Below are positions 19,977 to 34,686 of a stretch of DNA of 64,000 nucleotides, piece after piece. Positions within the stretch are counted from its first letter, which is position 1, and the number at the start of each line of letters is the position of its first letter. The notes beneath the pieces are model-generated. The model saw nothing but the letters and a program-made list of their open reading frames with translations. It had not been told where the DNA came from and made no database searches. The DNA is from Acidobacteriota bacterium (GTDB taxonomy: Bacteria; Acidobacteriota; UBA6911): the NCBI GenBank assembly GCA_963664705.1, contig OY761556.1:6688001-6752000 (forward strand). Direction: 5' to 3'. The translations under genes were made by a program, and so were the position numbers.

Positions 19977-20053
19977 GCGCCCGTAGCTCAGCTGGATAGA
20001 GCGTTTGACTACGAATCAAAAGGTCGCAAGTTCGAGTCTTGCCGGGCGCACCA
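19977..20053 (+). tRNA. tRNA-Arg(ACG)
   Basis: 77 nt; acceptor stem GCGCCCG/CGGGCGC, anticodon arm TTTGA-CT-ACG-AA-TCAAA, GTTCGAG T-loop, encoded CCA. Confidence 0.97.
20007..20051 (+). repeat. att repeat, tRNA-proximal
   Basis: gactacgaatcaaaaggtcgcaagttcgagtcttgccgggcgcac. Confidence 0.93.
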
Positions 20054-20116
20054 CAAATCCTTGATTCTTCTGTAGTTGCCCATCTTCTGAAATCCGTAGT
20101 CCCTGGCCATAAGCAC

Positions 20117-20138
20117 CTTGGGGGTTATTTGGGGGTAA
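20117..20138. promoter_or_regulatory. Putative integrase arm-type site pair
   Basis: cttgggggttatttgggggtaa is identical at 29611-29632 and 31221-31242, with a variant at 31480-31500. Confidence 0.6.
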
Positions 20139-21212
20139 TCAGGCGGTTTTCGTCTTGTCTTTCGACGTAACTGCCAGCGAAGCTCCAAGCGCATTCATTG
20201 CCGCCCGGGTGTGCTCCGACGAGAGGTGAGCATATCTCAGTGTCATCTCAAAATCCTTATGCCTGAGAATTTCCTTCACGGTCGCGAGCGGAACTCCGCT
20301 CATGACCATGTGAGAGGCAGCGGTGTGTCTCAGTGTGTGGAATGTGACGTCTTCCAGCTTTGCCGCCTTGACAGCTTCCTCGAACTGCCGCTTGAGATCC
20401 CAGTAGGGCTGCCCTTTGATCTTCCCAGTGAAGACATAAGGAGAATCAAAGCGACGTGGAATGGATCGAAGAATCTCAACCGCTCTTTTGTCCAGCGGGA
20501 TGGTGGAATATTCGCCGTTCTTCTGGTCGAGGATTTCCAGATATTCCTGGCGAAGGTTGACATGCTCCCACTTCAGTCGAAAGACTTCGCTTTTGCGCAG
20601 TCCGGTGTGAAGTGCGAGCTCAATCATCTGCTTTAAGTCCGGAGTTGGACTGGCGTCCAGAAGAATGCTGCATTCTTCCGCGGTCAGATATCGCAACCGG
20701 CGATTGTTTTCCTTGAACTGCTTTACTCCGTGGCATGGATGGCTTTGGATAACCTTCCACTCAACAGCTTTGCTGAACAGATGCCGCAGACAAGCCATGC
20801 GGCGGTTGACCGTTGCCGGTTTGAACGGCAATTTGCGCCGGCTTTCTTTGTTCATCAGTTCAGCCTGGTACTTTTCAATGTCGGCACGTGTGATGCTGCT
20901 AAGCAAAGTGCCACTTCCGAATTGTGCTTTGATGCTCTCCAGATGAGACTCCTTGCTTTTGGCAGCTTTCTGGCCGATATCCTGGCACCATTGCGAATAC
21001 CGATCGGCGAATTGTCCGAGTGTGTCTTTGGAGACTCGTTTCTTTTCCAGGTATCGATCTTCATCAATGAGGGTCTGTATTTTCCTGAGATTTGTTTCAG
21101 CCATTTCCGGGGTAGCGCATGTTTCTCTTATTCGTACCCCTTTGAAGAACGTGTCTATCCTCCAGCGGTTGCCACGAGGCGCGATGCCAGGTGGTAACTT
21201 CTTTTTGCTCAT
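20139..21212 (-). CDS. int: Tyrosine recombinase/integrase
   Basis: HTGLRKSE (R), HTLRH, ILRH, TLRYAH catalytic residues; adjacent to the tRNA att site. Confidence 0.97.
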   Translation of the reverse strand: MSKKKLPPGIAPRGNRWRIDTFFKGVRIRETCATPEMAETNLRKIQTLIDEDRYLEKKRVSKDTLGQFADRYSQWCQDIGQKAAKSKESHLESIKAQFGSGTLLSSITRADIEKYQAELMNKESRRKLPFKPATVNRRMACLRHLFSKAVEWKVIQSHPCHGVKQFKENNRRLRYLTAEECSILLDASPTPDLKQMIELALHTGLRKSEVFRLKWEHVNLRQEYLEILDQKNGEYSTIPLDKRAVEILRSIPRRFDSPYVFTGKIKGQPYWDLKRQFEEAVKAAKLEDVTFHTLRHTAASHMVMSGVPLATVKEILRHKDFEMTLRYAHLSSEHTRAAMNALGASLAVTSKDKTKTA

Positions 21213-21304
21213 ATTTGTATCTCTCCGTTGGTAAAGGATTGTCGATCAATAACATCCCTGGTTTAGGATGCACGTTCATTCATTGACACGGCTGTGTGGA
21301 GGTG

Positions 21305-21520
21305 TCAATTGGATTTTGGCTTGATCAATGCTCGTTCGCTTCTCCGGAATAAGACAAGGTATCGCCAAAAGTGCCCATTGGGATCCTGGAAGACGATGGC
21401 AGTTTCGGATTTCCAGACAATCCTGTGCACAAAATGACCATCCAAAATCAGGGCAGGGGAAACAGATTTCGTTACCTCGTGCCGGGCCAGATGGATTTTT
21501 GTCATCTCAAGAAAGCTCAT
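21305..21520 (-). CDS. Small hypothetical protein between primase and integrase
   Basis: 71 aa, co-oriented with the core module, GAGG upstream. Confidence 0.45.
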   Translation of the reverse strand: MSFLEMTKIHLARHEVTKSVSPALILDGHFVHRIVWKSETAIVFQDPNGHFWRYLVLFRRSERALIKPKSN

Positions 21521-21537
21521 GCTATTGATTCCTCAGG

Positions 21538-21590
21538 TTGCGAGAAAAGCGGGATAAGCGAGATAAGCCGCCTTTTCTCGCTTTTCACGC
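21538..21590. repeat. 9-bp iteron cluster (putative origin)
   Basis: cgagaaaag cgggataag cgagataag followed by inverted cttttctcg cttttcacg, overlapping the primase stop codon. Confidence 0.65.
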
Positions 21591-23666
21591 AGATTTCCAT
21601 ACGGTTAACGGCCTTCCTTTGGTCTGTTTGCTCTCTTTTGTCACTTTGCCCACGCGCAATAATATATCCAGAGCTAGATCTTTCTCGCGAGTTCGATGCC
21701 CTCCAAAAAGGCGCCCAATCTCATCGTCTGTCAGGGATCCATCCGCTGATTCCTGCAAGGCATCGATAATCCTATCCGCACACTGATTCCCGGTCTTGGT
21801 TCCGAAGACATAGCGAACTGATGCATCGCAATAGTCCCATACTGCTGTTGCCGCCTGGAGATGTTCAATGCGGATCACGTTGGAACAATCCATTAGCGCA
21901 TAAATCAGGCTCAGCCGAAGCACTTGTGCCTCTGCCCGATTCAATAATCCACCAGCCAACCCAGGTTGGCCTTCAGATAAAGGGAAATAGATTGTTTCCC
22001 ACATTTCATTTGCCGGCGTATTGCGGACGATCCTGCCGGCGTTTCGGGCAAGGATCACGGCTCGTTCCATCTGTTCCGTCAGGCTGTTCAGTATCTCAGG
22101 CGGCAACGCCGCGCCGTGTGGTAATGCTTTTGATCTTTTTGCCAGCAGCCACAGGAACCGATTGCCAAACCCATTGCTCTGTTCTGTCGCAGACAGACAT
22201 CGGATCAATTCGTCTTTTGTGGTATGCCCGATGATCGAGACATGAGCGCCAGTTGAGTGGATAGGATTGTTACGAGTGAGCGTGGAAAGATTTCCGCTGT
22301 CCCACGCTTGCCGGATAACTCCTGAAAGGCTGTTTCCTTCTCGCCCCATGATCTTCAGCATGTTGGAAAATTCCGACTCGATGCAAAACAGACGCTTGTC
22401 TGGTTCTCCGGAATCAACAATCTCCTCTTCATAGTCGATAATTCGCCCACCCCTTTTTACCGGGACGGTTTTCCTCAATTCATCTCTGACGTGATAGATG
22501 AGTCCCTCTCCAGATGACAGCCCGCAGCGGACTCTACCTTCGGACCACTTGCCGTCAATCCTGCTGAATATTTCCCTTGGTGTGCTCCAGGATGTTCCTT
22601 TCCTCCCTTTGGAAGATTCTCCAATCACCACGGCGAAAATCCGAGCTGGATGCAGGTCATTTTGCACGGCTGCGTGTGCGCTGGACCCAATGATGTTTCC
22701 AAACGCGGCTAACACATGGATGAGCACAGAGGCCGGATCCGCTTCAGTATATGGGTCTATCGCGCGGACAATATCGCCAGGCAATCCATATAGAGCTTCA
22801 GGAGCCAGAACTGGCCATGAAAGAACTGTCGGTTCATTTTTCTGGCGCATCGAAATGTAGGGAGTCTTTTCATATGGAGACCCCTTTTGCATATGCTGGA
22901 TCAATTGATCATAAGTGCCTCCAGCTTGAATCCAATCGGACACATCTCCCTTTTCCGGCAATCCAGGAAGCGTCACAATCCCGACTCGGTTAGCGATAGG
23001 CATCAGATTGCGGGCAACGTCTCTTGCATGCCGTTCACCTGGCTCATCGTTATCTGGAAATATGGTCACTTCTTTACCGGTGAACAATGAATTGAAGTCC
23101 GCCCTCCATTTGCCGGCTCCTCCCGGATTGCAGGTTGCGGGAATGCCAATTGACCAGAGATGATCAACGTCCTTTTCGCCTTCGACGACGCAGACCATCT
23201 TTGAATCTTTCCATTCCGGCAACCTGTAGGGCAACAGCTTCACGCCCTGCATGCATCCCTCACCGCCGATCCACCCGCTGCCGTCCGCTCGCTCCTGAAC
23301 GAATGTCTTGCCTATTTGCGTCTTGTATCTTTTCACCCGAAACAGAGGATCCCCGTTCTCATTTCTATACACATAATCACAAATAAACTCCCAGCTGTTT
23401 TTCCCATTCAGCAGCCCATGATCACGCAGCCAGGATGAGACCGCTTTCCGGTTATCGGGATGAAGGCCGGAAATAAACGCCGCCAGATCCCAGGCATTGC
23501 CTGATTTGCCACAGGGGCCGCAGAGCCAGCAGTTCTTTTCCGGATTGATTGAAAGGCTGGGATGTTGATCGTCATGGCGAGGACACCGAAAAAGCATCTC
23601 TCTTCCTAAATACCGTCCACCCAAAAGGGCAGCTGCACGTGCGATCTCTATGCATTGGAGGGTCAT
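21585..23666 (-). CDS. Primase-helicase: CHC2-type Zn finger, Toprim and DUF3987-like P-loop domain
   Basis: CPRHDDQHPSL...CGPCG; VVEGEKD; FPDNDEPG; KGDVSDW; GESSKGRKGT; LSSGEGLI; GFGNRFLW. ATG 23666 overlaps the Xis stop (ATGA). Confidence 0.85.
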   Translation of the reverse strand: MTLQCIEIARAAALLGGRYLGREMLFRCPRHDDQHPSLSINPEKNCWLCGPCGKSGNAWDLAAFISGLHPDNRKAVSSWLRDHGLLNGKNSWEFICDYVYRNENGDPLFRVKRYKTQIGKTFVQERADGSGWIGGEGCMQGVKLLPYRLPEWKDSKMVCVVEGEKDVDHLWSIGIPATCNPGGAGKWRADFNSLFTGKEVTIFPDNDEPGERHARDVARNLMPIANRVGIVTLPGLPEKGDVSDWIQAGGTYDQLIQHMQKGSPYEKTPYISMRQKNEPTVLSWPVLAPEALYGLPGDIVRAIDPYTEADPASVLIHVLAAFGNIIGSSAHAAVQNDLHPARIFAVVIGESSKGRKGTSWSTPREIFSRIDGKWSEGRVRCGLSSGEGLIYHVRDELRKTVPVKRGGRIIDYEEEIVDSGEPDKRLFCIESEFSNMLKIMGREGNSLSGVIRQAWDSGNLSTLTRNNPIHSTGAHVSIIGHTTKDELIRCLSATEQSNGFGNRFLWLLAKRSKALPHGAALPPEILNSLTEQMERAVILARNAGRIVRNTPANEMWETIYFPLSEGQPGLAGGLLNRAEAQVLRLSLIYALMDCSNVIRIEHLQAATAVWDYCDASVRYVFGTKTGNQCADRIIDALQESADGSLTDDEIGRLFGGHRTREKDLALDILLRVGKVTKESKQTKGRPLTVWKSA

Positions 23667-23863
23667 GTCCGCCCGACCTCCCGTTGTTTCATCCACTTCG
23701 TCAGATCGGACGGCTTTACGCGAAAGACCCGTCGGCAGGCTCCCTGGGACACAATCACGCTTGGGATCTCGCCACTGGCAATCATCTGGTGGATCTTGCT
23801 TCGCCGGAGATTGAGGATTTCGCCGACTTCCTTGGGCCCCAAAAGTTTTTCAATAATCTCCAT
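23663..23863 (-). CDS. Excisionase-like helix-turn-helix protein
   Basis: 66 aa, LLGPKEVGEILNL.RSKIHQMIASGEIPS...RVKPSDL..W (HTH_17-like). Confidence 0.85.
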   Translation of the reverse strand: MEIIEKLLGPKEVGEILNLRRSKIHQMIASGEIPSVIVSQGACRRVFRVKPSDLTKWMKQREVGRT

Positions 23864-23889
23864 TGTTCCAGGCTCCTTGTGAGATGAAG

Positions 23890-24300
23890 TTAATGGCCTT
23901 CTGCTTCGAGCTTTTTCCGTATTGCCGCAGCCTCTTCTTTGGGTAGCCGGTGCAGGTTGTATCGTTCACTGTAGGTGAACTCGAAAACAGGCTTTGGCGT
24001 TTCCTGACGGGGCAGCAGCGGAATAAATCGCTCCTGGTGGGGCATTTGGGGACTATCCGCCTTATGTTGAATCGATAGAGTTTTTCTAGCCTCAGCATCC
24101 TTTCGAAAAAAATACACCTTGCGCCCACCGGATCGTGCTTTGACAAATTTTGCGATGGCTGCATGCTGAATGATCAGGCCGTGCCTCTCACGCAGAATGA
24201 CGGCAATTCGCCTGTAGGAGACAGGCGGCCGTTCGCTTCGCAAATCGCTGATTTCACTTTTGTATGGGATCAAGCTTGATTGAAATGGTTTTCCCGGCAC
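23890..24300 (-). CDS. Putative DNA-binding (HTH-like) protein, first gene of the core operon
   Basis: Basic 136-aa protein with SYRRIAVILRERHGL.I..AAIAKFVK; AAAGGA RBS. Confidence 0.65.
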   Translation of the reverse strand: MPGKPFQSSLIPYKSEISDLRSERPPVSYRRIAVILRERHGLIIQHAAIAKFVKARSGGRKVYFFRKDAEARKTLSIQHKADSPQMPHQERFIPLLPRQETPKPVFEFTYSERYNLHRLPKEEAAAIRKKLEAEGH

Positions 24301-24350
24301 GGGTTATTCCTTTCTGTTTCTGCAACATGGCGCTATGGAAAGAGGCAACA

Positions 24351-24456
24351 TGTCTCCGCTTTGTATCCGCTGTGTGTCCACTTCAGCGTTGAGGATGTAG
24401 AAAAGTGGAGACAGAGTGGAGACAAAGCGGATACAAGTCTCCACTTTGTCTCCACT
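24351..24456. repeat. Eight 11-bp repeats (consensus AGYGGAKACAR) in three alternating-orientation blocks
   Basis: tgtctccgctt tgtatccgctg tgtgtccact / agtggagacag agtggagacaa agcggataca / gtctccacttt gtctccact. Confidence 0.75.
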
Positions 24457-25141
24457 CCATTGGGGCTCGATGGGATGCTTCGAGGTATTGCGTCTAGGAT
24501 TGGAAGGGACCAATCCTAGAATTTCCATCAAGGCTTCCGTGGCTAACCGGCAACATGTAACATCGAATGAATCGCGCTCGATAGACAGAAAAAGGTGGGA
24601 GACATTTCTTGTCACGGCAATCTCCAATTAATGGGAAAGCATTGGTTCTTCCACCACTCATAGACAACGAGCGGGAAAATGGCTCAAAACTTACCGGGCA
24701 TTTTTCCGTATTGTCCTTTTTATCCGTGGCTCATTGCCGAATACCGTTTTGATAAAGAGTGAATGCCGTTCCGACCACCGGTTGCAGCACGTCAGTTTAT
24801 GTACCAAGAAAGGTCGTCACGCTGTCTTTCCATGCGCAGAAAATCCAGGAAAGAGTATACAGGCGATTTGAGAACACTTTTGTGGATGGCGGCTCATGAG
24901 GCCGCGAAAGAGGCCATTTGCCGGGCCAATTGAACAATGGTGAAACATGGAGAATCGATATGAACAATCACCCGGACGCAGAATAATAAAAAAACAAAAT
25001 GCAATTACCTATTGACACATTAAAGAATAAATACTCTTTTTTTAACGATCAATGGTTCAAGAAGTCACCGGAACGAGTGACGATAATTGCCTTCTTGATT
25101 CTGCCTCATCATGTGAAAATGGAGTCAAATTGGAGGCGTGC

Positions 25142-25534
25142 ATGGCTGCGGGTGATCCCCAGAGAACGTGGTTCCCGGAGATGATCCAGAAATTGCGGTT
25201 AGAGTGGAATGAAAGCATGGCTATCCCGGATCTAGTGGCACTATGCGATTCATTAGATAGCATGCTTCATGAAATTCGCTCCACTCGAAATATTCGCCCA
25301 CCTATCGTGAAGTGTCCTAAATGCGGAAAGGTTGGACCTGCCGCAGAAAGACATGTGAGTGTTCGTGCCATGATTCTTTCGCTAAGCCGGTTCGACATCG
25401 TCGATTCGGAGCGTGTAAAAATATTAGAGAAAAAATGGGCGGCTTATCGTAAAGAAAACGGGCTCAATCTCTATGGCAAGGCTGAAACTGGCGAAGTCAG
25501 AATCAGAAGCTGTGTCGATTCCGAAGCCGAGTAA
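25142..25534 (+). CDS. Hypothetical protein with CPKC motif
   Basis: MAAGDPQRTWFPEM...; GGAGG RBS before ATG 25142. Confidence 0.7.
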   Translation: MAAGDPQRTWFPEMIQKLRLEWNESMAIPDLVALCDSLDSMLHEIRSTRNIRPPIVKCPKCGKVGPAAERHVSVRAMILSLSRFDIVDSERVKILEKKWAAYRKENGLNLYGKAETGEVRIRSCVDSEAE

Positions 25535-25718
25535 TGCGTCGCAGAATAAAGCTCCTGAAGGGAACTTTCAGGTGGTAGGCGGTCCTCACGCAATTTTTGG
25601 CGTTTTATATAAGTTAGGGACCCGACTTTACATATTGGCGTTCTTTCCCCCAATCGGACTTATCGGGACCGGTGATTCTGATTAGTGTTTTCTATGCGGC
25701 TAGAGCTATGGTAGAGGT

Positions 25719-26099
25719 ATGAACCTTCTGAATCGTTCAGTTCTCGGCTTTTTGGTTTTTGCTATCTCCATATGCTTTGGGGCATTGCTTGCGTTCTCGG
25801 CCAGTTCCGTTTTTCGGATGCATCCTTTTGGGGATAAGACTTCGGTTTTGTTTCCAGTATTAGTAGGGATACCATTGGGCTGCGCGCTTGGAAGTGCCAC
25901 GAATCTAAAAATGCATAGACCAAAGATATATGAGAATCGCGGCATCCTGGTGGCGGCGGCGATTGTGGGAGCTTTGGGAGCAATGCTGTGCGTTGTTTTG
26001 GCTGATGCGCTTGAAGGCAAAATATTGCTCCTAAGCCCCTTCATTGTGAGCATCCTGTCTTTTGGAGCATTTTGCTTTTTAATTCATTCCAGGCCCTGA
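25719..26099 (+). CDS. Small membrane protein with about 4 TM segments
   Basis: Four hydrophobic stretches; GAGG directly upstream. Confidence 0.6.
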   Translation: MNLLNRSVLGFLVFAISICFGALLAFSASSVFRMHPFGDKTSVLFPVLVGIPLGCALGSATNLKMHRPKIYENRGILVAAAIVGALGAMLCVVLADALEGKILLLSPFIVSILSFGAFCFLIHSRP

Positions 26100-26259
26100 G
26101 ACAATTACCATTATGGCGTTCTCTCCCATATTCGGACTTCCTGGGACTTGTGTCTAGAAATATGTGATCTAAAATCAATTGTTTCACATCCTACAAGTCA
26201 GCTACAGTTTAGCCTTGGTCTGCGTCAGTTACGCAATTGCATTATGTGAGGGGCTGAAA

Positions 26260-27702
26260 TTGTCTGTCCAAGCGAAATGGTGCAAATTAGCGATGCACTG
26301 TATGGTTTTTACGTCCATACTGCATTATTCTGCTTTCAGTCAATCCGAAAGTAAGAACCCGATAGACAAGGCGCAATCCAGCGGTTCGTTCAATATTCAT
26401 GTGGATGTCGATTTAGTTACTACTGACGTGACCGTGACTGGAGCCGACGCGCCAGAATTTCAGGCCAGCGATTTTGCAATTTATGAAGACGATGTTTCTC
26501 AAAATCTAACCTACTTCTCTCGTGATCAACTTCCGATTGCAGTTGCGTTGTTGGTTGACAGCAGCGGCAGCATTGAAAAGCATCTGAATGAATTGCAAAT
26601 TGCGGCGCTGACTGCATTACGGCGTCTGAAAGCGGAAGATCAAGTCGCGCTCTATTCCTTTTCAGGCGGCTACAGGAAACTGAGCAACCTCACAGCTGAT
26701 CGATTGCATATAGCCAAATTACTCAGCCATCTCTCAATCATGGAAGGCGGGACTGATATATTTTATGCACTCCAGGATGCAACGCGTTACCTAAAAAGGG
26801 CAGCTCCGCATCATCGCAGAGCGATTATTCTTATTTCCGACAATTGCCATGCCAATGGCAAAGCCAGGCCCGACAAAATGCTGAATGAGTTGCTGGAAAG
26901 TGCCACCACGCTTTATGATATTGTAACTCCCAGCGACCATAGTGACTTGCCTTACTGTTTGATGACGGATCCCGCCATAAGAAAAATTTCTGCCGATTCC
27001 GGCGGTGAAATTGTGGATGTAAGAAACTCGATGTCGCTCAAAGGAGCATTGGGAAAAGCTATATCCAGAATTCGAATGCAATACACTTTGGGTTTCAATC
27101 CATCTGATCCCAGCCCAAAGGGGACATATCATAGATTAAAGGTCCGCTTTGCCGATGAGAATCGTTGCCGAACATGCAGAATTATCGGACGTAGCGGATA
27201 TTATTCAGGAGCATCGTTATCCGTTGCAGTTTCCGGCAAGACACAAGAAATAGCGCCACCTCACTCGACAGACTCTGATCAGCAGTTGTTGCAGAGAATT
27301 ATCCTTATTGCAGGGACATCTTCGCCAGAATTTCGTGAAATTCCATTCACGGTTACAACTGAAAAGCAAACAGCTCTCAGTGGAAAAAGAGAGGTTAAAC
27401 TTGATTTGCGGATTAATCCTTCTGAAATAGAGTTTCAGATTTCCAAGGGAAAACGAACCTACAAAGTGGTTGCAGCCATTCTGCACGCAGATGCGAAAGG
27501 AGAGATAAAAGGCTGCGAATCGTGGGTACTTGAAGATCAGCTTAGCAGGGAGGAATTTGATCGCATAATTAGGGACGGAATTCATGTAACTACTACGGTC
27601 AATTTGGAGCCACAAAATCAAATGCTAAAAGCCGTAATTTATGATGAAAACAGCGGCAAACTAGGCAGTGGATTTGTTTTTGGCTCTTACGGCGAGCGCT
27701 GA
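26260..27702 (+). CDS. Acidobacterial VWA-domain protein with C-terminal extension
   Basis: IHVDVDLVTTDVTV, MIDAS DSSGS, GGTD, ILISDN, QYTLGF; TTG start at 26260 after GAGGGG (start uncertain). Confidence 0.85.
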   Translation: MSVQAKWCKLAMHCMVFTSILHYSAFSQSESKNPIDKAQSSGSFNIHVDVDLVTTDVTVTGADAPEFQASDFAIYEDDVSQNLTYFSRDQLPIAVALLVDSSGSIEKHLNELQIAALTALRRLKAEDQVALYSFSGGYRKLSNLTADRLHIAKLLSHLSIMEGGTDIFYALQDATRYLKRAAPHHRRAIILISDNCHANGKARPDKMLNELLESATTLYDIVTPSDHSDLPYCLMTDPAIRKISADSGGEIVDVRNSMSLKGALGKAISRIRMQYTLGFNPSDPSPKGTYHRLKVRFADENRCRTCRIIGRSGYYSGASLSVAVSGKTQEIAPPHSTDSDQQLLQRIILIAGTSSPEFREIPFTVTTEKQTALSGKREVKLDLRINPSEIEFQISKGKRTYKVVAAILHADAKGEIKGCESWVLEDQLSREEFDRIIRDGIHVTTTVNLEPQNQMLKAVIYDENSGKLGSGFVFGSYGER

Positions 27703-27729
27703 TCACAACCATGATGGGAGGCATTCCCA

Positions 27730-28956
27730 ATGCGAGAAGCTGATATTTCGTTAAAAAATAACCGGATTTTAATACTTCTGATAATTGGAATCGTTTTTGT
27801 TTGCTTTTCAGTGCGTGTGAATAGCAGAGAGAATCAGATTCAATCTGTGGACAGGGTGCAACAGTCCAGCGGGCCGGATGGAGATGCAAAAATCCGAGTC
27901 TCCGCTAAAGAGATAAGATTTGATGCTGTAGTTTTAGATAAGAGCGGCCATCAAGCCATTGATCTAAAATCAGCTGATTTTGATATCTATCAAGATAATA
28001 AGAAGCAAACAGTCAATTCATGCACTTATATCGCCCATAGGCCAATCCATCTTGCAGTGCCAACTCACGTGTCAAAGGGATCAAAGACGGAGTCAATGAT
28101 AGCTTCTTCCGGACTGAGCGGCGTCGATACTCGACGAAAGATAGTCTTTTTCCCAAACTATCCCGCTATGACCCTCAAGCAAAGTCATGAGACCCAGATG
28201 TTTATTAAGAAGTTTATTGAGGACGAAATGCAGGAAGGGGATCTGGTCGCGATCACAATGAATCCGCAGGGCGATACGGAGTCGCAGATCTTCAGCTCTG
28301 ATAAAGCTTTTGTTCTTTCCGTGCTGACCCAGGGTAAATGGTGGAGCGGGCCACAACAGAATATGGAAGGGTATGGCTTGCCACTTAGTAATTGTATTCG
28401 TAAATTACAAAATATTCCCGGCCGCAAATCGTTAATAGTAATCTCACCTGAGCCGGCGTATTTGGCCGGCTACGTATACCAAGTAATATCCCCTGAATTA
28501 TTAGAGAAGATGCATGAAGTACCGGCTGATGCCGCTTTCCGGGCCGGAGTTGTCATTCACATAATAGATATTAGCGAACCGAAAAAACTTGATGCGATTG
28601 ATCACACTTTTTCTTCAGCTGGGAGTATTAGTGCTGCGGAAGAAGCAAACATGATTCGCCATGAACTCGCGAGAAAAAGTGCTGAGTCTCAATTTCCTTT
28701 GGCAAAAAGAACCGGAGGCCTTTTGGCCAAGAATTTATCAGCAAAAACAATGGAAAACATAAAGGAACAATTAGGCGGTTATTACCTGCTAACTTATACT
28801 CCGGAAGAGAGCACTTTCACTCCTCCCCCAGACTTGAGTAGGAGGCCTCCCTATCGCAAGATAAAAATCAAAGTGAAGCGATCAGGTATGGAAGTATATG
28901 CGCGAGATGGTTTCTTTGGAGTGCCATCACGCGAGAACACTGTAACGGGGAAATGA
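27730..28956 (+). CDS. VWA-related protein with degenerate MIDAS
   Basis: IRVSAKEIRFDAVVLDKSGH...DFDIYQD, PGRKSLIVIS, TGG, YYLLTY.P, YRKIKIKV, ARDGFF; no DxSxS. Confidence 0.8.
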   Translation: MREADISLKNNRILILLIIGIVFVCFSVRVNSRENQIQSVDRVQQSSGPDGDAKIRVSAKEIRFDAVVLDKSGHQAIDLKSADFDIYQDNKKQTVNSCTYIAHRPIHLAVPTHVSKGSKTESMIASSGLSGVDTRRKIVFFPNYPAMTLKQSHETQMFIKKFIEDEMQEGDLVAITMNPQGDTESQIFSSDKAFVLSVLTQGKWWSGPQQNMEGYGLPLSNCIRKLQNIPGRKSLIVISPEPAYLAGYVYQVISPELLEKMHEVPADAAFRAGVVIHIIDISEPKKLDAIDHTFSSAGSISAAEEANMIRHELARKSAESQFPLAKRTGGLLAKNLSAKTMENIKEQLGGYYLLTYTPEESTFTPPPDLSRRPPYRKIKIKVKRSGMEVYARDGFFGVPSRENTVTGK

Positions 28957-29167
28957 TTTCCTCATTTCTGACCCTTTAAAAACCGCATTTTTGTCTTAAG
29001 TCCCAAGAAACGGCATTCGAGGAAACTACTCTGGCTTTGCAACAGTGGCGGATTCCATTTTTGCTGGCAGCTAAGTTTCAAGCTTTGAAAGATGACGCTT
29101 TTGTGGAATGATCTCTGGAATCGCTTCTAATCTTATAGTCCATGAAATTACTTGGCCTAAATTCGAG

Positions 29168-29216
29168 ACGCACTAAACACGCAGAATTTACGCACCATCG
29201 GCGCACCAAGCACGCA
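29168..29216. repeat. Imperfect 11-bp tandem repeat (ACGCA core, about 5 units)
   Basis: acgcactaaac acgcagaattt acgcaccatcg gcgcaccaagc acgca. Confidence 0.55.
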
Positions 29217-29308
29217 TCCGGATAAATGCCCTTCCGGAAACTTGAATTCTAAGGCGAAGCCTTAGGGATGGTGTCTTACTACAGATATTTCCACAAGCAG
29301 CAACACCT

Positions 29309-29392
29309 CACCGGACCATACCCTGACAAACACCGGACAAGCGCCGGACACCGAACAGACGTCGAACAACAGTCGAACAAACACCGAACAGT
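29309..29392. repeat. Imperfect ~11-bp tandem repeat (CACCGRACAAA-like, about 8 units)
   Basis: caccggaccat accctgacaaa caccggacaag cgccggac accgaacaga cgtcgaacaac agtcgaacaaa caccgaacagt. Confidence 0.6.
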
Positions 29393-29531
29393 AGATATCC
29401 AGAATGCCTTCTCTGTGCGTATTCTGATCTGCGTTCTGATAAAGGTTGATAGAGAACGCAAGCTGAACAATGGGGTACTAGTGGATCGATGATTGAGGCT
29501 CCGACCGGTGCTCAGTCATTCATAGCCCAGA

Positions 29532-29632
29532 CTTTTCTCGCTTATCTCGCTTTTCTCGCATGCCCGGATATTTTGAATTGTTCCCGCGATGTCGGAATTA
29601 CTTGAAAATTCTTGGGGGTTATTTGGGGGTAA
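29532..29632 (+). repeat. ~100-bp direct repeat A (3 iterons plus arm-type pair)
   Basis: cttttctcg cttatctcg cttttctcg ca...gaaaattcttgggggttatttgggggtaa; aligns along its length with 31139-31242. Confidence 0.85.
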
Positions 29633-29642
29633 ATATCGATGT

Positions 29643-29663
29643 TTATTTATTTACAATAAATAA
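29643..29663. promoter_or_regulatory. Inverted repeat in the AT-rich abiE promoter (putative AbiEi operator)
   Basis: ttatttatt-tac-aataaataa, a perfect 9-bp inverted repeat ~20 bp before the ATG. AbiEi proteins are known to autorepress at promoter inverted repeats. Confidence 0.5.
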
Positions 29664-29684
29664 CAAATATGTTAATTATTATAT

Positions 29685-30326
29685 ATGAAATATGGATCGC
29701 TGGTTGAGCTGGTTGGCTCCATGGAATGCTTCGATCTGCAGCTGCTTGTGCAGGCATTCGCTGAACCGCGAGAAATTATCCGGGTGCAGTTGTCCCGCTG
29801 GATCAGCGACCACAAGGTAATCAGTCTGCGACGCGGAGTTTATACGCTCCCAGACACCTATCGCCGCGTATCTATCGTGCCGGCAAGACTGGCGAATCAA
29901 CTCTATCACCCATCTTATCTGAGCGGCTTGTGGGCTTTGGGTTACTACGACATGATCCCCGAAAGAGTCGTATGGTTGACGAGCGTAACTCCTCGGGTGC
30001 CCCGTCGTTTTGACAATTCTCTTGGCATTTTCGATTATCGCAGCATTAAACAGAAGGCGTTTTTCGGATCTGTAACCGCACCCTACGGCGATCGGTCCAT
30101 ATTGGTTGCGGAACCTGAGAAAGCGCTACTGGATCATTGGCATCTCACATCGGGTGAGTGGACTGCAGAACGCCTTGAGGAAATGCGCTATCAGCATTGT
30201 CGGCAGGTGAATAGGGACAAGCTTCAAGCCTATGCAGATCGTTTCCAAAGCCCGCGCTTATATCGAGCAGCCGAACGCTGGCTGACGGTAACAGCCGAAG
30301 AAGAGAAAGGCACGGTTACTCTATGA
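29685..30326 (+). CDS. abiEi: Type IV toxin-antitoxin AbiEi-family antitoxin
   Basis: QLSRW...LRRGVY, PSYLSGLWALGYYDMIPE, AEPEKALLD; overlaps the toxin gene (ATGA). Confidence 0.88.
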   Translation: MKYGSLVELVGSMECFDLQLLVQAFAEPREIIRVQLSRWISDHKVISLRRGVYTLPDTYRRVSIVPARLANQLYHPSYLSGLWALGYYDMIPERVVWLTSVTPRVPRRFDNSLGIFDYRSIKQKAFFGSVTAPYGDRSILVAEPEKALLDHWHLTSGEWTAERLEEMRYQHCRQVNRDKLQAYADRFQSPRLYRAAERWLTVTAEEEKGTVTL

Positions 30327-31129
30327 GGGATCAGGCACTGGCACTTGCACGTGGAGCAAAAGATCCGGGGCAGGCGCTCAACCTGCTGCGAGAATATCTC
30401 CAAACGCTTGTCCTGCGATCATTTCATGAGTGTGAGGCATTTCGTAATCTGGCGTTTGTCGGCGGTACAGCGTTACGCTTCCTCCATAATCTGCCGCGTT
30501 TTTCTGAAGATCTCGATTTCTCGATGGTGTCTGAAAAGGGCTATGCCGGCATGGAGTGGATGTCGAAAGTCAAACGTGATTTGTCTCTGGCAGGATTCGA
30601 TCCCCACCTCACCTGGAATGATCGCAAGGTTGTTCATACAGGATGGATCCGGCTGGCAGGGCTGCTTTATGACGCCGGCATTTCCGGAGTGCCGGACCAG
30701 AAGCTGGCCATCAAGCTGGAAATTGACACTCGTCCACCGGCTGGGGCAATCTGCGAAAGAAGCATCATTACCCGTACCGTGACTTTTTTTGTCCAGCATT
30801 ACGATCTGCCGTCCATGATGGCGGGCAAGCTTCATGCTGCAATTACACGAAAATATGTCAAAGGCCGCGACTGGTATGATCTCCTGTGGTACAGGACGCA
30901 ACGTCCGCCAGTTGAACCGAACATTAATTTGCTTCAGAAGGCTTTGGATCAAACTCATCGTTCAGCCAAATACAATGCCCATGCGTGGCAAAGCTTGGTG
31001 AGTGATCGTCTGGCGTCAATCAGCATCAAAGATATTACCGGCGACGTTTATCCATTTTTGGAACACCCTCAGGATGCCGCACTCCTTACGCGGGAAAATC
31101 TGTCTGGTTTATTTTCAGTTCAACATTGA
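30323..31129 (+). CDS. abiEii: AbiEii-family nucleotidyltransferase toxin
   Basis: FVGGTAL...RFSEDLDF, IKLEID, K..A...R...GRDWYDL. Confidence 0.92.
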   Translation: MRDQALALARGAKDPGQALNLLREYLQTLVLRSFHECEAFRNLAFVGGTALRFLHNLPRFSEDLDFSMVSEKGYAGMEWMSKVKRDLSLAGFDPHLTWNDRKVVHTGWIRLAGLLYDAGISGVPDQKLAIKLEIDTRPPAGAICERSIITRTVTFFVQHYDLPSMMAGKLHAAITRKYVKGRDWYDLLWYRTQRPPVEPNINLLQKALDQTHRSAKYNAHAWQSLVSDRLASISIKDITGDVYPFLEHPQDAALLTRENLSGLFSVQH

Positions 31130-31138
31130 GGTTGCGCC

Positions 31139-31242
31139 CTTATCTCGCTTTTCCCGCTTTTCTCGCAAGCCGGGATAAGCTTGAAGTGCCCCTTGCGATG
31201 CTGGAATTTGCCGGAAAATTCTTGGGGGTTATTTGGGGGTAA
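31139..31242 (+). repeat. ~100-bp direct repeat B (3 iterons plus arm-type pair)
   Basis: cttatctcg cttttcccg cttttctcg caa...gaaaattcttgggggttatttgggggtaa; the first 30 bp match the reverse complement of 21538-21567 with one mismatch. Confidence 0.85.
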
Positions 31243-31369
31243 TTGGGAGGCAAAAACAGCTTTTGGTGAACAAGATGGACAAATCAAATATCCTAATTAC
31301 AGCTAATAACCATGAGGGTGCGACGCATATTCTTGATTTATCTGGATTTATGAAAAATGCTCCTGGAGG

Positions 31370-31414
31370 GACTACGAATCAAAAGGTCGCAAGTTCGAGT
31401 CTTGCCGGGCGCAC
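31370..31414 (+). repeat. Distal att repeat (duplicated 3' part of tRNA-Arg)
   Basis: 45/45 identical to 20007-20051. Confidence 0.93.
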
Positions 31415-31504: not shown

Positions 31505-31654
31505 TGCTGTTTTTGCCTCTTCTTTGGGTTTCACTTTCAAAGCTTTACTCAATGCTTCCAATGCTTCTTGCCGATGTTCCGGTGATAGATGCGAATATCT
31601 CAGGGTTGTTGAATAATCCTAGTGTCTGAGGATTTCCTTCACCGTGTGCAGATC
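31505..31654 (-). pseudogene. Relic C-terminus of a second, related tyrosine integrase
   Basis: Manual translation DLHTVKEILRH*DYSTTLRYSHLSPEHRQEALEALSKALKVKPKEEAKTA versus PLATVKEILRHKDFEMTLRYAHLSSEHTRAAMNALGASL...KTA in the intact integrase; in-frame stop and missing 5' part. Confidence 0.88.
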
Positions 31655-33283: not shown

Positions 33284-34147
33284 TTAAGCGGCTTTGGCAG
33301 ATTCCTCATAGGCTTCAGGGCTCCGATAGCCCAGAGCCGAGTGAAGCCGCTGTCGATTATAAAACACTTCGATATACTCAAAAATATCTGATTGCGCCTC
33401 CTTTCTCGTTTCGTAATTTCGATGATAAATAAGTTCTGTTTTCAGCGTGGCAAAGAAACTTTCCATAACAGCATTATCCCAGCAATTGCCTTTGCGGCTC
33501 ATGCTGCAAAGAACTCCGCTAGATTTCAATAACTTCTGGTAATCCCCGCTGGCGTATTGGCTGCCTCGATCTGAATGATGGAGCAGACCTGGTGATGGGT
33601 TACGTTTGAAAAAAGCCATGCACAGAGCTCTTTCAACCAGATGTCGACAAATCCGGCTACCCATGGCCCAGCCAACGATCCTTCTTGAGTACAGATCCAT
33701 CACCGCGGCCAGATACAACCAGCCTTCTTTTGTTGGGATGTATGTGATATCCGCCACCCAAGCTTTGTTTGGCATTTTCACCGCAAATTCCCGGTTCAAC
33801 ACATTTGGAGATATCGGGAAATTATGTTTTGAATCTGTCGTAACTCTAAATTTCCGTTTCTGTTTGCCTTGGATCCTATTCTCGCGCATTAGCCTGGCAA
33901 TACGATTCCTGCTGTGTAATTTGGACACTGCCCGCAATTGCGCATGAATTCTGGGACTTCCGTACGCGCCCCGGCTTGCCCGATGAATTGCCCGAATTGC
34001 TAGTAATAATCGGCTGTTCTCTGCATTCCTCGGGCTCTCGGGCCGCTTGAGCCAAAGGTAGAATCCGGCTCTGGATACTTCAAGCACTCGACACATCAGC
34101 GATATCGTAAATTCATGCCGATGCGCTTGAATGAAGCCATACCTCAT
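33284..34147 (-). CDS. IS3 transposase OrfB (DDE domain)
   Basis: [38 protein letters not shown]; A7G -1 frameshift motif at ~34176-34183. Confidence 0.93.
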
Positions 34148-34437
34148 TTGGATTCTTTGGCAAAGAACGCCGTCGCTTTTTTTAATATATCGCGCTCCTG
34201 ACGCAGTAAGGCATTCTCGCGCCGTAGGCGACGGAGTTCTTCCTCCTCTGGTTTCAAATGCCCAGATCCCGGAAATGCTTGAGAGGTGTTTGCGAATTCC
34301 TTTTTCCAACGTGTCAGCATGTTTGCGTTTATTCCCAAATCTCTGCTGGCCTGTGCAATGGTGATATTTGACTCGGTGAGCATACGAACTGCTTCGATTT
34401 TGAATTCCTTCGTGTACTTCCTTCGCTGTTTTTCCAT
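34144..34437 (-). CDS. IS3 transposase OrfA (HTH)
   Basis: [13 protein letters not shown]...[15 protein letters not shown]. Confidence 0.93.
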
Positions 34438-34686
34438 GACACACCCTCTGGTGGACTAGAATGTTCCACCCTTTTCAGTGTGTCAACGGAATCGGGTCAT
34501 GGTTAAACTCTCATAAGGTCGTTTTTGCTGGATGTGTGGTCGGTCCTGAGGAATGGGAAACGGTCTTGTATTGCCCCAAATGTCGAGCAGCGGAAAGCGA
34601 ATGGCTGAGAAAACACTGAAGTCCGAACTAATGGCAGATGTTAAATCAAGACTGAAGCAGGAGGGGTTGTTAAGGTTTGAGCGGGG

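Follow-up and report, generated by a model that had tools for sequence, protein, structure and literature searches.

A satellite-like integrative element of an Acidobacteriota genome with two predicted origins of transfer and candidate conjugative helpers

How does a small chromosomal island move if it carries genes for integration and replication and no recognizable gene for packaging or conjugation? This question is raised by an 11.4-kb element in the genome of an Acidobacteriota bacterium (labeled G000; assembly GCA_963664705.1). The window analyzed is a stretch of 64,000 nucleotides (contig OY761556.1, positions 6,688,001 to 6,752,000), and the element occupies its positions 20007 to 31414, at a tRNA-Arg gene. 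An initial annotation, made from the letters alone, described an intact-looking, self-replicating but "transfer-less" element and proposed a helper-dependent satellite. Helper dependence stands; "transfer-less" does not, since two non-coding motifs of the element elsewhere adjoin genes for MOBF relaxases. Because the element carries two predicted MOBF origins of transfer (oriTs), conjugation in trans is likely, and the presence of the same motifs at MOBF relaxase loci makes a conjugative helper, rather than a phage, the most likely one. Judging from sequence, it is quite probable that this is a relaxase-less, oriT-only integrative mobilizable element (IME) that hitches on co-resident MOBF integrative and conjugative elements (ICEs), with a second predicted oriT and a satellite-type replicon.

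The borders are sharp. ARAGORN calls tRNA-Arg(ACG), the integration target, at 19977..20053 (+ strand). The 45-bp attachment (att) cores at 20007..20051 (attL, the 3′ part of the tRNA, +) and 31370..31414 (attR, +) are identical, and the neighboring bases differ at both sides. Within the window a 30-nt probe from the core matches at these two cores only, with 0 matches expected by chance. The element has a GC content of 48%, against 53% for the genome. A leftward run encodes a helix-turn-helix (HTH) protein, an excisionase (xis; PF12728, 38 bits), a zinc finger/Toprim/DUF3987 protein, a 71-amino-acid open reading frame (ORF), and a tyrosine integrase (int; PF00589, 108 bits, with catalytic R206, H292, R295, H318, and Y327 all there). 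The rightward cargo comprises two unnamed ORFs, two acidobacterial von Willebrand factor A (VWA) genes (TIGR03436), and AbiEi/AbiEii. Att repeats, gene order, and cargo are thus as first annotated, and the core ORFs and att cores are intact. Profile scans of the element's ORFs gave no terminase, capsid, Psu/Sid, relaxase, coupling-protein, or FtsK match, and a six-frame tblastn search against relaxases, type IV secretion system (T4SS) proteins, and head proteins returned nothing at E ≤ 0.01, in agreement with the annotation. These scans cover recognized families; a relaxase of an unrecognized type among the unnamed small ORFs is still conceivable.

The first motif, a predicted oriT (oriT1; 24466..24519, +), lies upstream of the HTH gene. 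It consists of a hairpin (24466-24484), a 9-nt linker, GTATTGCGT (24485-24493), and a second hairpin (24494-24519). At up to 12 mismatches, its 46-nt core has exactly three matches in the 6.89-Mb genome: one in the element itself (0 mismatches) and one next to each of the two TrwC relaxases (1 and 4 mismatches), the only ones that the genome has. Among 51 genomes of the same family, the exact 16-nt core was found near 10 of 10 relaxases of the ICE family. Across 137 genomes of the class, it occurs at 27 places in 15 genomes, all within that family, and the reversed control gave 0. All 24 copies read hairpin, 9-nt linker, hairpin, repeats. When 21 of them were aligned, omitting three near-duplicates, double-sided changes appeared in 7 of the 17 hairpin pairs (21 cells, versus 5.0 after shuffling and at most 2 when the alignment was slid), and the linker was invariant save for one position. 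The linker reads GTATTGCGT in the element and GTATTGTGT in two ICEs. It resembles published MOBF nick sites, in which a hairpin is followed by GTATTGTCT in R388 (PMC4176350), by GTGGGGTGT in F, and by GTAGTGTGT in R100 (PMC3074121). Because of this hairpin-plus-9-nt likeness, a nick is predicted at 24493/24494 on the + strand.

Other explanations of the motif were tried and rejected. Rfam gives tRNA only, which speaks against non-coding RNA for either oriT motif, and no sigma-70 promoter call falls across oriT1. A 107-amino-acid ORF over oriT1 (24304-24627) is probably not a gene, because its conserved stretch is the DNA hairpin.

Which machinery could act on oriT1? Both of the genome's other HTH/oriT1 copies lie within conjugation modules that read VirB11, RepB-type primase, MobF relaxase, the shared block, the HTH homologue, a ParA/TraL-like ATPase, a coiled-coil protein, a TrwB coupling protein, and ArdC. 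VirB4 and the rest of an operon like those of type T mating-pair formation (MPF-T) adjoin both modules. The relaxases have YY and HUH motifs, and the locus at 5.64-5.66 Mb additionally has a VirB9 match. Each module lies between a tRNA gene (Ala and Met, respectively) and a copy of that tRNA's 3′ end. The gene after the HTH homologue has a weak full-length TraL match (E = 0.006). In their oriT, repeats, small DNA-binding gene, KGGxxKS ATPase, third gene, and MOBF/MPF-T machinery, these ICEs are like R388 stbABC and RP4 traKLM (PMC3098194); in sequence, no resemblance to R388 StbA or StbB is detectable. The HTH gene and oriT1 are the sole parts that the element has in common with the ICEs, so it is not the remnant of one.

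Both ICE regions hold further mobile DNA. The first ICE belongs to an array of tandem islands in which tRNA-Ala(GGC) is followed by five more copies of its 3′ end (G000 5584226-5753510; loci L009, L236, L007, and L006). The array includes a remnant at 5738.5-5743.9 kb that shares the arm and 9-mer motifs described below with the element, and the tRNA-Arg att core has a 43-bp copy at G000 5584530. The second ICE has a DruA (Druantia) match (L008, 24-1073) and a large helicase-type gene cluster (G000 6461283-6476072), likely defense cargo.

The 136-amino-acid HTH protein (23890..24300, −) is 52% and 39% identical to the post-oriT genes of the two resident ICEs, and its predicted fold is a three-helix HTH. 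Its family occurs in 14 of the 137 class genomes, all of one family. We fetched 20 of the 30 matched places as stretches of up to 20 kb, some ended by contig borders: 8 have TrwC, 1 is cut and has the ATPase and coupling protein, and 11 lie at tRNA genes with no TrwC in the fetched stretch. Between the gene and oriT1 are direct and inverted repeats of the GGAGAC type (24339..24457), predicted to be the protein's binding sites. In each of the 21 usable HTH copies (three others have no usable ORF), the repeat hexamer goes with the residues of the recognition helix. The 8 copies of the GGAGAC type make up a single clade, supported at 99/96 without the recognition-helix columns; none has a relaxase in its fetched stretch, and the lineage, which spans 6 genomes, uses several tRNA targets. 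A 64%-identical homologue matches an Atlas TraK cluster (0.92, 196 of 256 features; PF17273 on 34% of the cluster) and an Atlas StbA cluster (0.91; PF28167 on 91%). This embedding match, made through a homologue, is a lead toward a TraK/StbA-like protein. The protein itself has no Pfam, PHROG, or NCBIfam name and no solved relative. The oriT1-HTH module is also found linked to various unrelated integrases, located at tRNA-Ser, -Lys, -Met, -Gly, -Leu, and -Asn (L281-L300); some of these stretches carry ParA/Rep-like or toxin-antitoxin genes, a family-wide set of candidate hitchers.

The second predicted oriT (oriT2; 29249..29276, +) has the geometry of the first: a 7-bp hairpin (29249-29265), a 9-nt linker, GGATGGTGT (29266-29274), then CT, antisense to the relaxase. 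Its nick is predicted at 29274/29275. The region is identical over 32 of 32 positions to loci L384 and L377, and in L384 the motif lies about 500 bp past the TrwC gene of a second MOBF family, whose identity to the ICE relaxase is about 36%. Of 12 regions with second-family relaxases, 7 have the motif at a distance of 0.5-0.65 kb beyond the relaxase, a contig edge cuts off 3, and the other 2 are without it. A 15-nt pattern of oriT2 gave 22 matches in 14 of the 137 genomes (control, 1), 20 of them in the same family; the two outside have no hairpin. Most second-family relaxases have an integrase nearby, and no VirB4, VirB9, VirB11, or coupling-protein match was found near them (8 fetched stretches, 5 loci), so these loci look like relaxase-only IMEs. 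Three other genomes (G445:C23, G006:C107, and G017:C10) have both motifs together, with no TrwC match in the stretch fetched.

These data suggest the following route. Int and Xis would excise a circle, which the primase-helicase would copy from the repeat array behind its own gene. The HTH protein would bind the repeats beside oriT1, and the relaxase of a co-resident ICE would nick oriT1. The coupling protein and T4SS of that ICE would export the strand, and Int would insert it into the tRNA-Arg of the recipient. oriT2 may provide a second route via the relaxase-only MOBF family. AbiE systems have a stabilizing role, and here AbiE might stabilize the element or defend the host.

Does such an element belong to a known class? 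The annotation's statement that it fits none of the templates named there holds for four of them. There is no relaxase, coupling protein, or VirB4 inside the att sites, as an ICE would have; the genome's TrwC and VirB4 genes lie elsewhere. P4-like satellites are defined by Psu, Sid, delta, and epsilon, for which no Pfam or PHROG match appeared among the scanned ORFs. Phage-inducible chromosomal islands (PICIs) and capsid-forming PICIs (cf-PICIs) are defined by terS, ppi, or capsid-morphogenesis/head genes, none of which was found by profile scans and tblastn. Four other described kinds do have a fitting anatomy: iOriTs, MGIVchHai6, and PIMEs in how transfer would work, and PICMIs in the trio of int, AlpA/xis, and DUF3987 genes. 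At the sequence level, the element fits the iOriT class of oriT-only IMEs (bioRxiv 10.64898/2026.01.13.699239): it is integrated and att-bounded, encodes a tyrosine integrase, has no relaxase or MPF genes by family scans and six-frame tblastn, and has an oriT in common with relaxase-bearing elements, here the co-occurring ICEs. Like iOriTs, it has no kinship to its helper outside the oriT region and carries defense cargo. According to that source, iOriTs are described for six Pseudomonadota species and usually have just one type of oriT, ICE or iMOB, whereas our element has one of each; its oriT families are also other sequences, and the words "primase" and "helicase" are absent from the main text of that source.

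The anatomy also resembles MGIVchHai6, since that relaxase-less element has int, xis, and its own oriT-recognition protein beside oriT and uses the relaxase, coupling protein, and T4SS of its helper (PMC7449626). MGIVchHai6 depends on a MOBH/IncC plasmid, has the MobI factor, and uses a trmE site, whereas for our element the helpers would be MOBF ICEs, the factor an HTH protein, and the site tRNA-Arg, and it has a primase-helicase. PIMEs likewise have int, alpA, a replicase of their own whose gene is directly followed by an iteron origin, an oriT with a conserved nick and element-specific repeats, and defense cargo (bioRxiv 10.64898/2026.01.12.698999). They differ in their RepA replicon, IncP/MOBP helpers, guaA site (in tested elements), and restriction to Pseudomonadota, and some encode a relaxase or trb genes. 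We found no published Acidobacteriota account of such oriT families or of such an element (closed-access papers lay outside the search).

Several observations weigh against an oriT-only IME served by the resident ICEs. The second MOBF relaxase family was not found in G000. In R388, stbA lies 3′ of the nick, an order described as general (PMC3098194), whereas the predicted register of oriT1 puts the HTH gene 5′ of it; because of this opposite orientation, the strand of oriT1 or the StbA analogy may be wrong. An hhalign comparison of the HTH profile with R388 StbA was negative (probability 0.7%), no HTH family member matches the TraK or StbA Pfam family (HTH_32 only, in 34 of 67 members), and a fold search yields generic HTH matches only (best Z 6.0). 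The element's GGAGAC repeats differ from the GGAAAT and GGCACC types of the resident ICEs, so compatibility with them depends on the common oriT1 core. Genome kinship inflates the covariation and co-occurrence counts. The annotation had proposed a search for attP/attB junctions and raised coverage, for which we used Logan contigs, which drop rare forms, from four runs (X1-X4) of one sample, possibly the element's source. They contain the element without any difference and no attP or attB joint. The depth of the element relative to its left flank is 12.5/7.9, 17.7/26.1, 24.5/18.6, and 4.8/5.6, with no consistent excess. Four other runs gave short pieces only (X5, X6, and X8) or 1 read (X11), and no RNA run containing the element was listed. 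These contig data neither show nor exclude rare excision. Finally, the replicon also suits phage satellites.

The integrase gene (20139..21212, −) is followed on its right by the 71-amino-acid ORF (21305..21520, −), which has no family match and fills the primase-int gap; homologues in sister elements are 43-69% identical. Next comes the gene for a CHC2 zinc finger/Toprim primase fused to an MCM-like DUF3987 helicase (21585..23666, −); its ORF reads from 23696, with a likely start at 23666 overlapping the stop of the gene for the excisionase, an AlpA-like HTH_17 protein (23663..23863, −). The predicted structure of the primase-helicase (mean predicted local distance difference test score, 90.5) matches MCM helicases and DnaG primase, and for one DUF3987 protein, published work establishes that it is a helicase (PMC11724360). 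Directly after the helicase stop lie inverted 9-nt repeat arrays (21538..21591). Such arrays follow the helicase gene in the element and 12 of 27 homologues, compared with 2 of 135 control windows, and the origins of Staphylococcus aureus pathogenicity islands (SaPIs) have a like position and shape (PMC9371898). The array is therefore predicted to be an iteron-type replication origin. The chassis is of the satellite type, and the transfer signals are conjugative.

Could a phage be the helper after all? A PICMI- or PICI-like satellite would be excised and replicated on infection and, having no packaging genes itself, be packaged by helper capsids, with the oriT motifs as passengers or a second route. 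We regard this as unlikely. The likeness to PICMIs, minimalist chromosomal islands that phages induce, is real: int, AlpA/Xis, a DUF3987 primase, a small ORF by int, no packaging genes, and defense cargo. All three protein profiles of the published PICMI model, integrase, AlpA (PF05930/PF12728), and primase (PF13148/PF19263), passed their cut-offs (PF00589 and PF12728 at the scores above; PF13148 at 28.2 versus 27; PMC10803314). PICMIs sit at fis in Vibrionaceae, average 6.7 kb, and are phage-packaged as concatemers, whereas our element is 11.4 kb long, has oriT-like motifs, and has an att core from the 3′ part of tRNA-Arg; by the authors' fis hallmark it is not a PICMI (PMC10803314). The SaPI-like array behind the helicase also suits a satellite, as do terminase, portal, or capsid genes near 7 of the 38 helicase homologues with context and the head-gene modules of the host genome itself. 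Against this, the capsid-bearing homologues are 39-49% identical, scattered on the tree, and not clustering with the element, which has no terS, sid, ppi, or capsid gene that we could find by the scans above. IMG/VR holds no close relative of the element and none of the whole primase; GenBank phages and PLSDB plasmids give partial primase matches only, below 40% identity, and no HTH match. IMG/VR gave 56 matches to the 16-nt oriT1 core, apparently by chance: none has the hairpin, HTH gene, or a relaxase. A satellite would also leave two conserved relaxase-linked motifs and a cognate HTH gene unexplained.

The head genes of G000 lie at 1.04, 1.93, 2.57, and 5.16 Mb (terminase, portal, or capsid), some adjoining tRNA-linked integrases, and are possible capsid-forming satellites or prophages. 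Four small elements elsewhere (L027, L038, L042, and L109) combine the same helicase family with head genes (terL-portal-capsid, or capsid alone), like PICIs or cf-PICIs. In sister L229 (9303-11144), a zinc finger/Toprim half 59% identical to the element's is fused to an AAA_25 helicase, a helicase-domain swap.

An inactive mosaic, in which an ICE oriT region and other island pieces accreted at tRNA-Arg with no working transfer, is more unlikely still. The site does look like an accretion hotspot, with an integrase remnant beyond attR and a right end duplicated around AbiE; ICE-derived fragments holding oriT1 exist (L283, L299, and L361), and the contigs gave no excision signal. Every core ORF and both att cores are intact, however, and the HTH lineage described above is a clade found in relaxase-less stretches only. 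Moreover, the HTH-xis-primase-ORF-int order recurs with oriT1 in L001 (G012:C336) and L106, whose primase is 82% and xis 88-89% identical to the element's. Nor are the relatives larger prophages or ICEs of which this could be a deletion remnant, as the annotation had allowed: the only two sisters with both att ends found measure 7.0 and 19 kb, and the scanned subset of their ORFs gave weak HTH-type matches at most and no head or relaxase family. Least likely of all, and to our mind very improbable, is a cargo element of the tycheposon kind, capable of excision and replication and carried passively by vesicles or generalized transduction; cargo tycheposons have the same int/xis/primase-helicase-at-tRNA plan (bioRxiv 10.1101/2020.12.28.424599), but this gives no reason for two relaxase-linked motifs with covarying hairpins.

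Sister elements occur at tRNA-Arg(ACG, TCG, and CCT), with integrases 54-71% identical. The HTH proteins of L001 and L106 are 45% identical to the element's and of another repeat type; their close primase and xis set beside this divergent HTH point to module exchange. L229, L232, L004, and L002 are without oriT1 by motif search. L001, L002, and L106 alone represent the group with 76-85% primase identity. A terS role for the CxxC-HTH proteins of L229 and L004 got no support from PHROGs. L004 (G000 1332197-1351240) is the 19-kb sister, at tRNA-Arg(TCG), with a 54%-identical int, xis, a D5_N/DUF5906 primase replacing DUF3987, and cargo that looks like type I restriction-modification genes. L002 has an N-terminally deleted primase; at 512-1375, two divergent small ORFs, TraK-like and ribbon-helix-helix by eye and with no family match, surround an AT-rich gap; together they may form a third oriT module, MOBP-like.

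Beyond the oriT-only IME, we tentatively suggest a broader reading. A satellite-type replicon (int, xis, Toprim-MCM primase-helicase, and iteron origin) may change its transport by swapping one module, here for an oriT with its own specificity protein and a second oriT. The element might then bridge satellites and conjugation, possibly using both routes, and would belong to an as yet unreported network of oriTs in a single Acidobacteriota family. Three close relatives show two repeat types. When a small int-xis-primase island has neither packaging nor transfer genes, the usual practice is to call it a cryptic phage satellite. The present case suggests conjugation as the vehicle of some such islands, with the telltale sign in non-coding DNA, which escapes gene-profile tools. 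It yields two candidate oriT families with predicted nick sites and candidate helpers in the same genome, and the pairing of repeat to recognition helix is directly testable.

The rest of the element is cargo and right-end DNA. Rightward from oriT1 are a 160-amino-acid ORF with no family match (25052..25534, +), a 126-amino-acid hydrophobic ORF (25719..26099, +), and the VWA-domain genes (26179..27702 and 27730..28956, +). A 17-nt motif beside int (20119..20135, +), probably an integrase arm-type site, has exact copies at 29613 and 31223. These copies accompany two ~100-bp repeats, the first with three 9-nt units and the arm motif (29532..29632, +) and the second 82% identical to it (31139..31242, +). 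The repeats flank the genes for the AbiEi antitoxin (29685..30326, +) and the AbiEii nucleotidyltransferase toxin (30323..31129, +), a type IV toxin-antitoxin pair. The AbiE cassette (29644-31123) is 87% identical in DNA to L229 4491-5971, where it adjoins, from outside, the attR of a 7-kb sister element that occupies this tRNA in a different genome. Since it lies inside here, between the right-end repeats, this suggests capture from a tandem neighbor.

Outside the element, 31505..31651 (−) encodes the remnant of a related integrase C terminus (57% identity over 49 amino acids), a sign, as we read it, of an older tandem element. A degenerate arm motif accompanies it, an IS3-like transposase follows at 33284-34444, and low GC content persists right of attR to about 44000.

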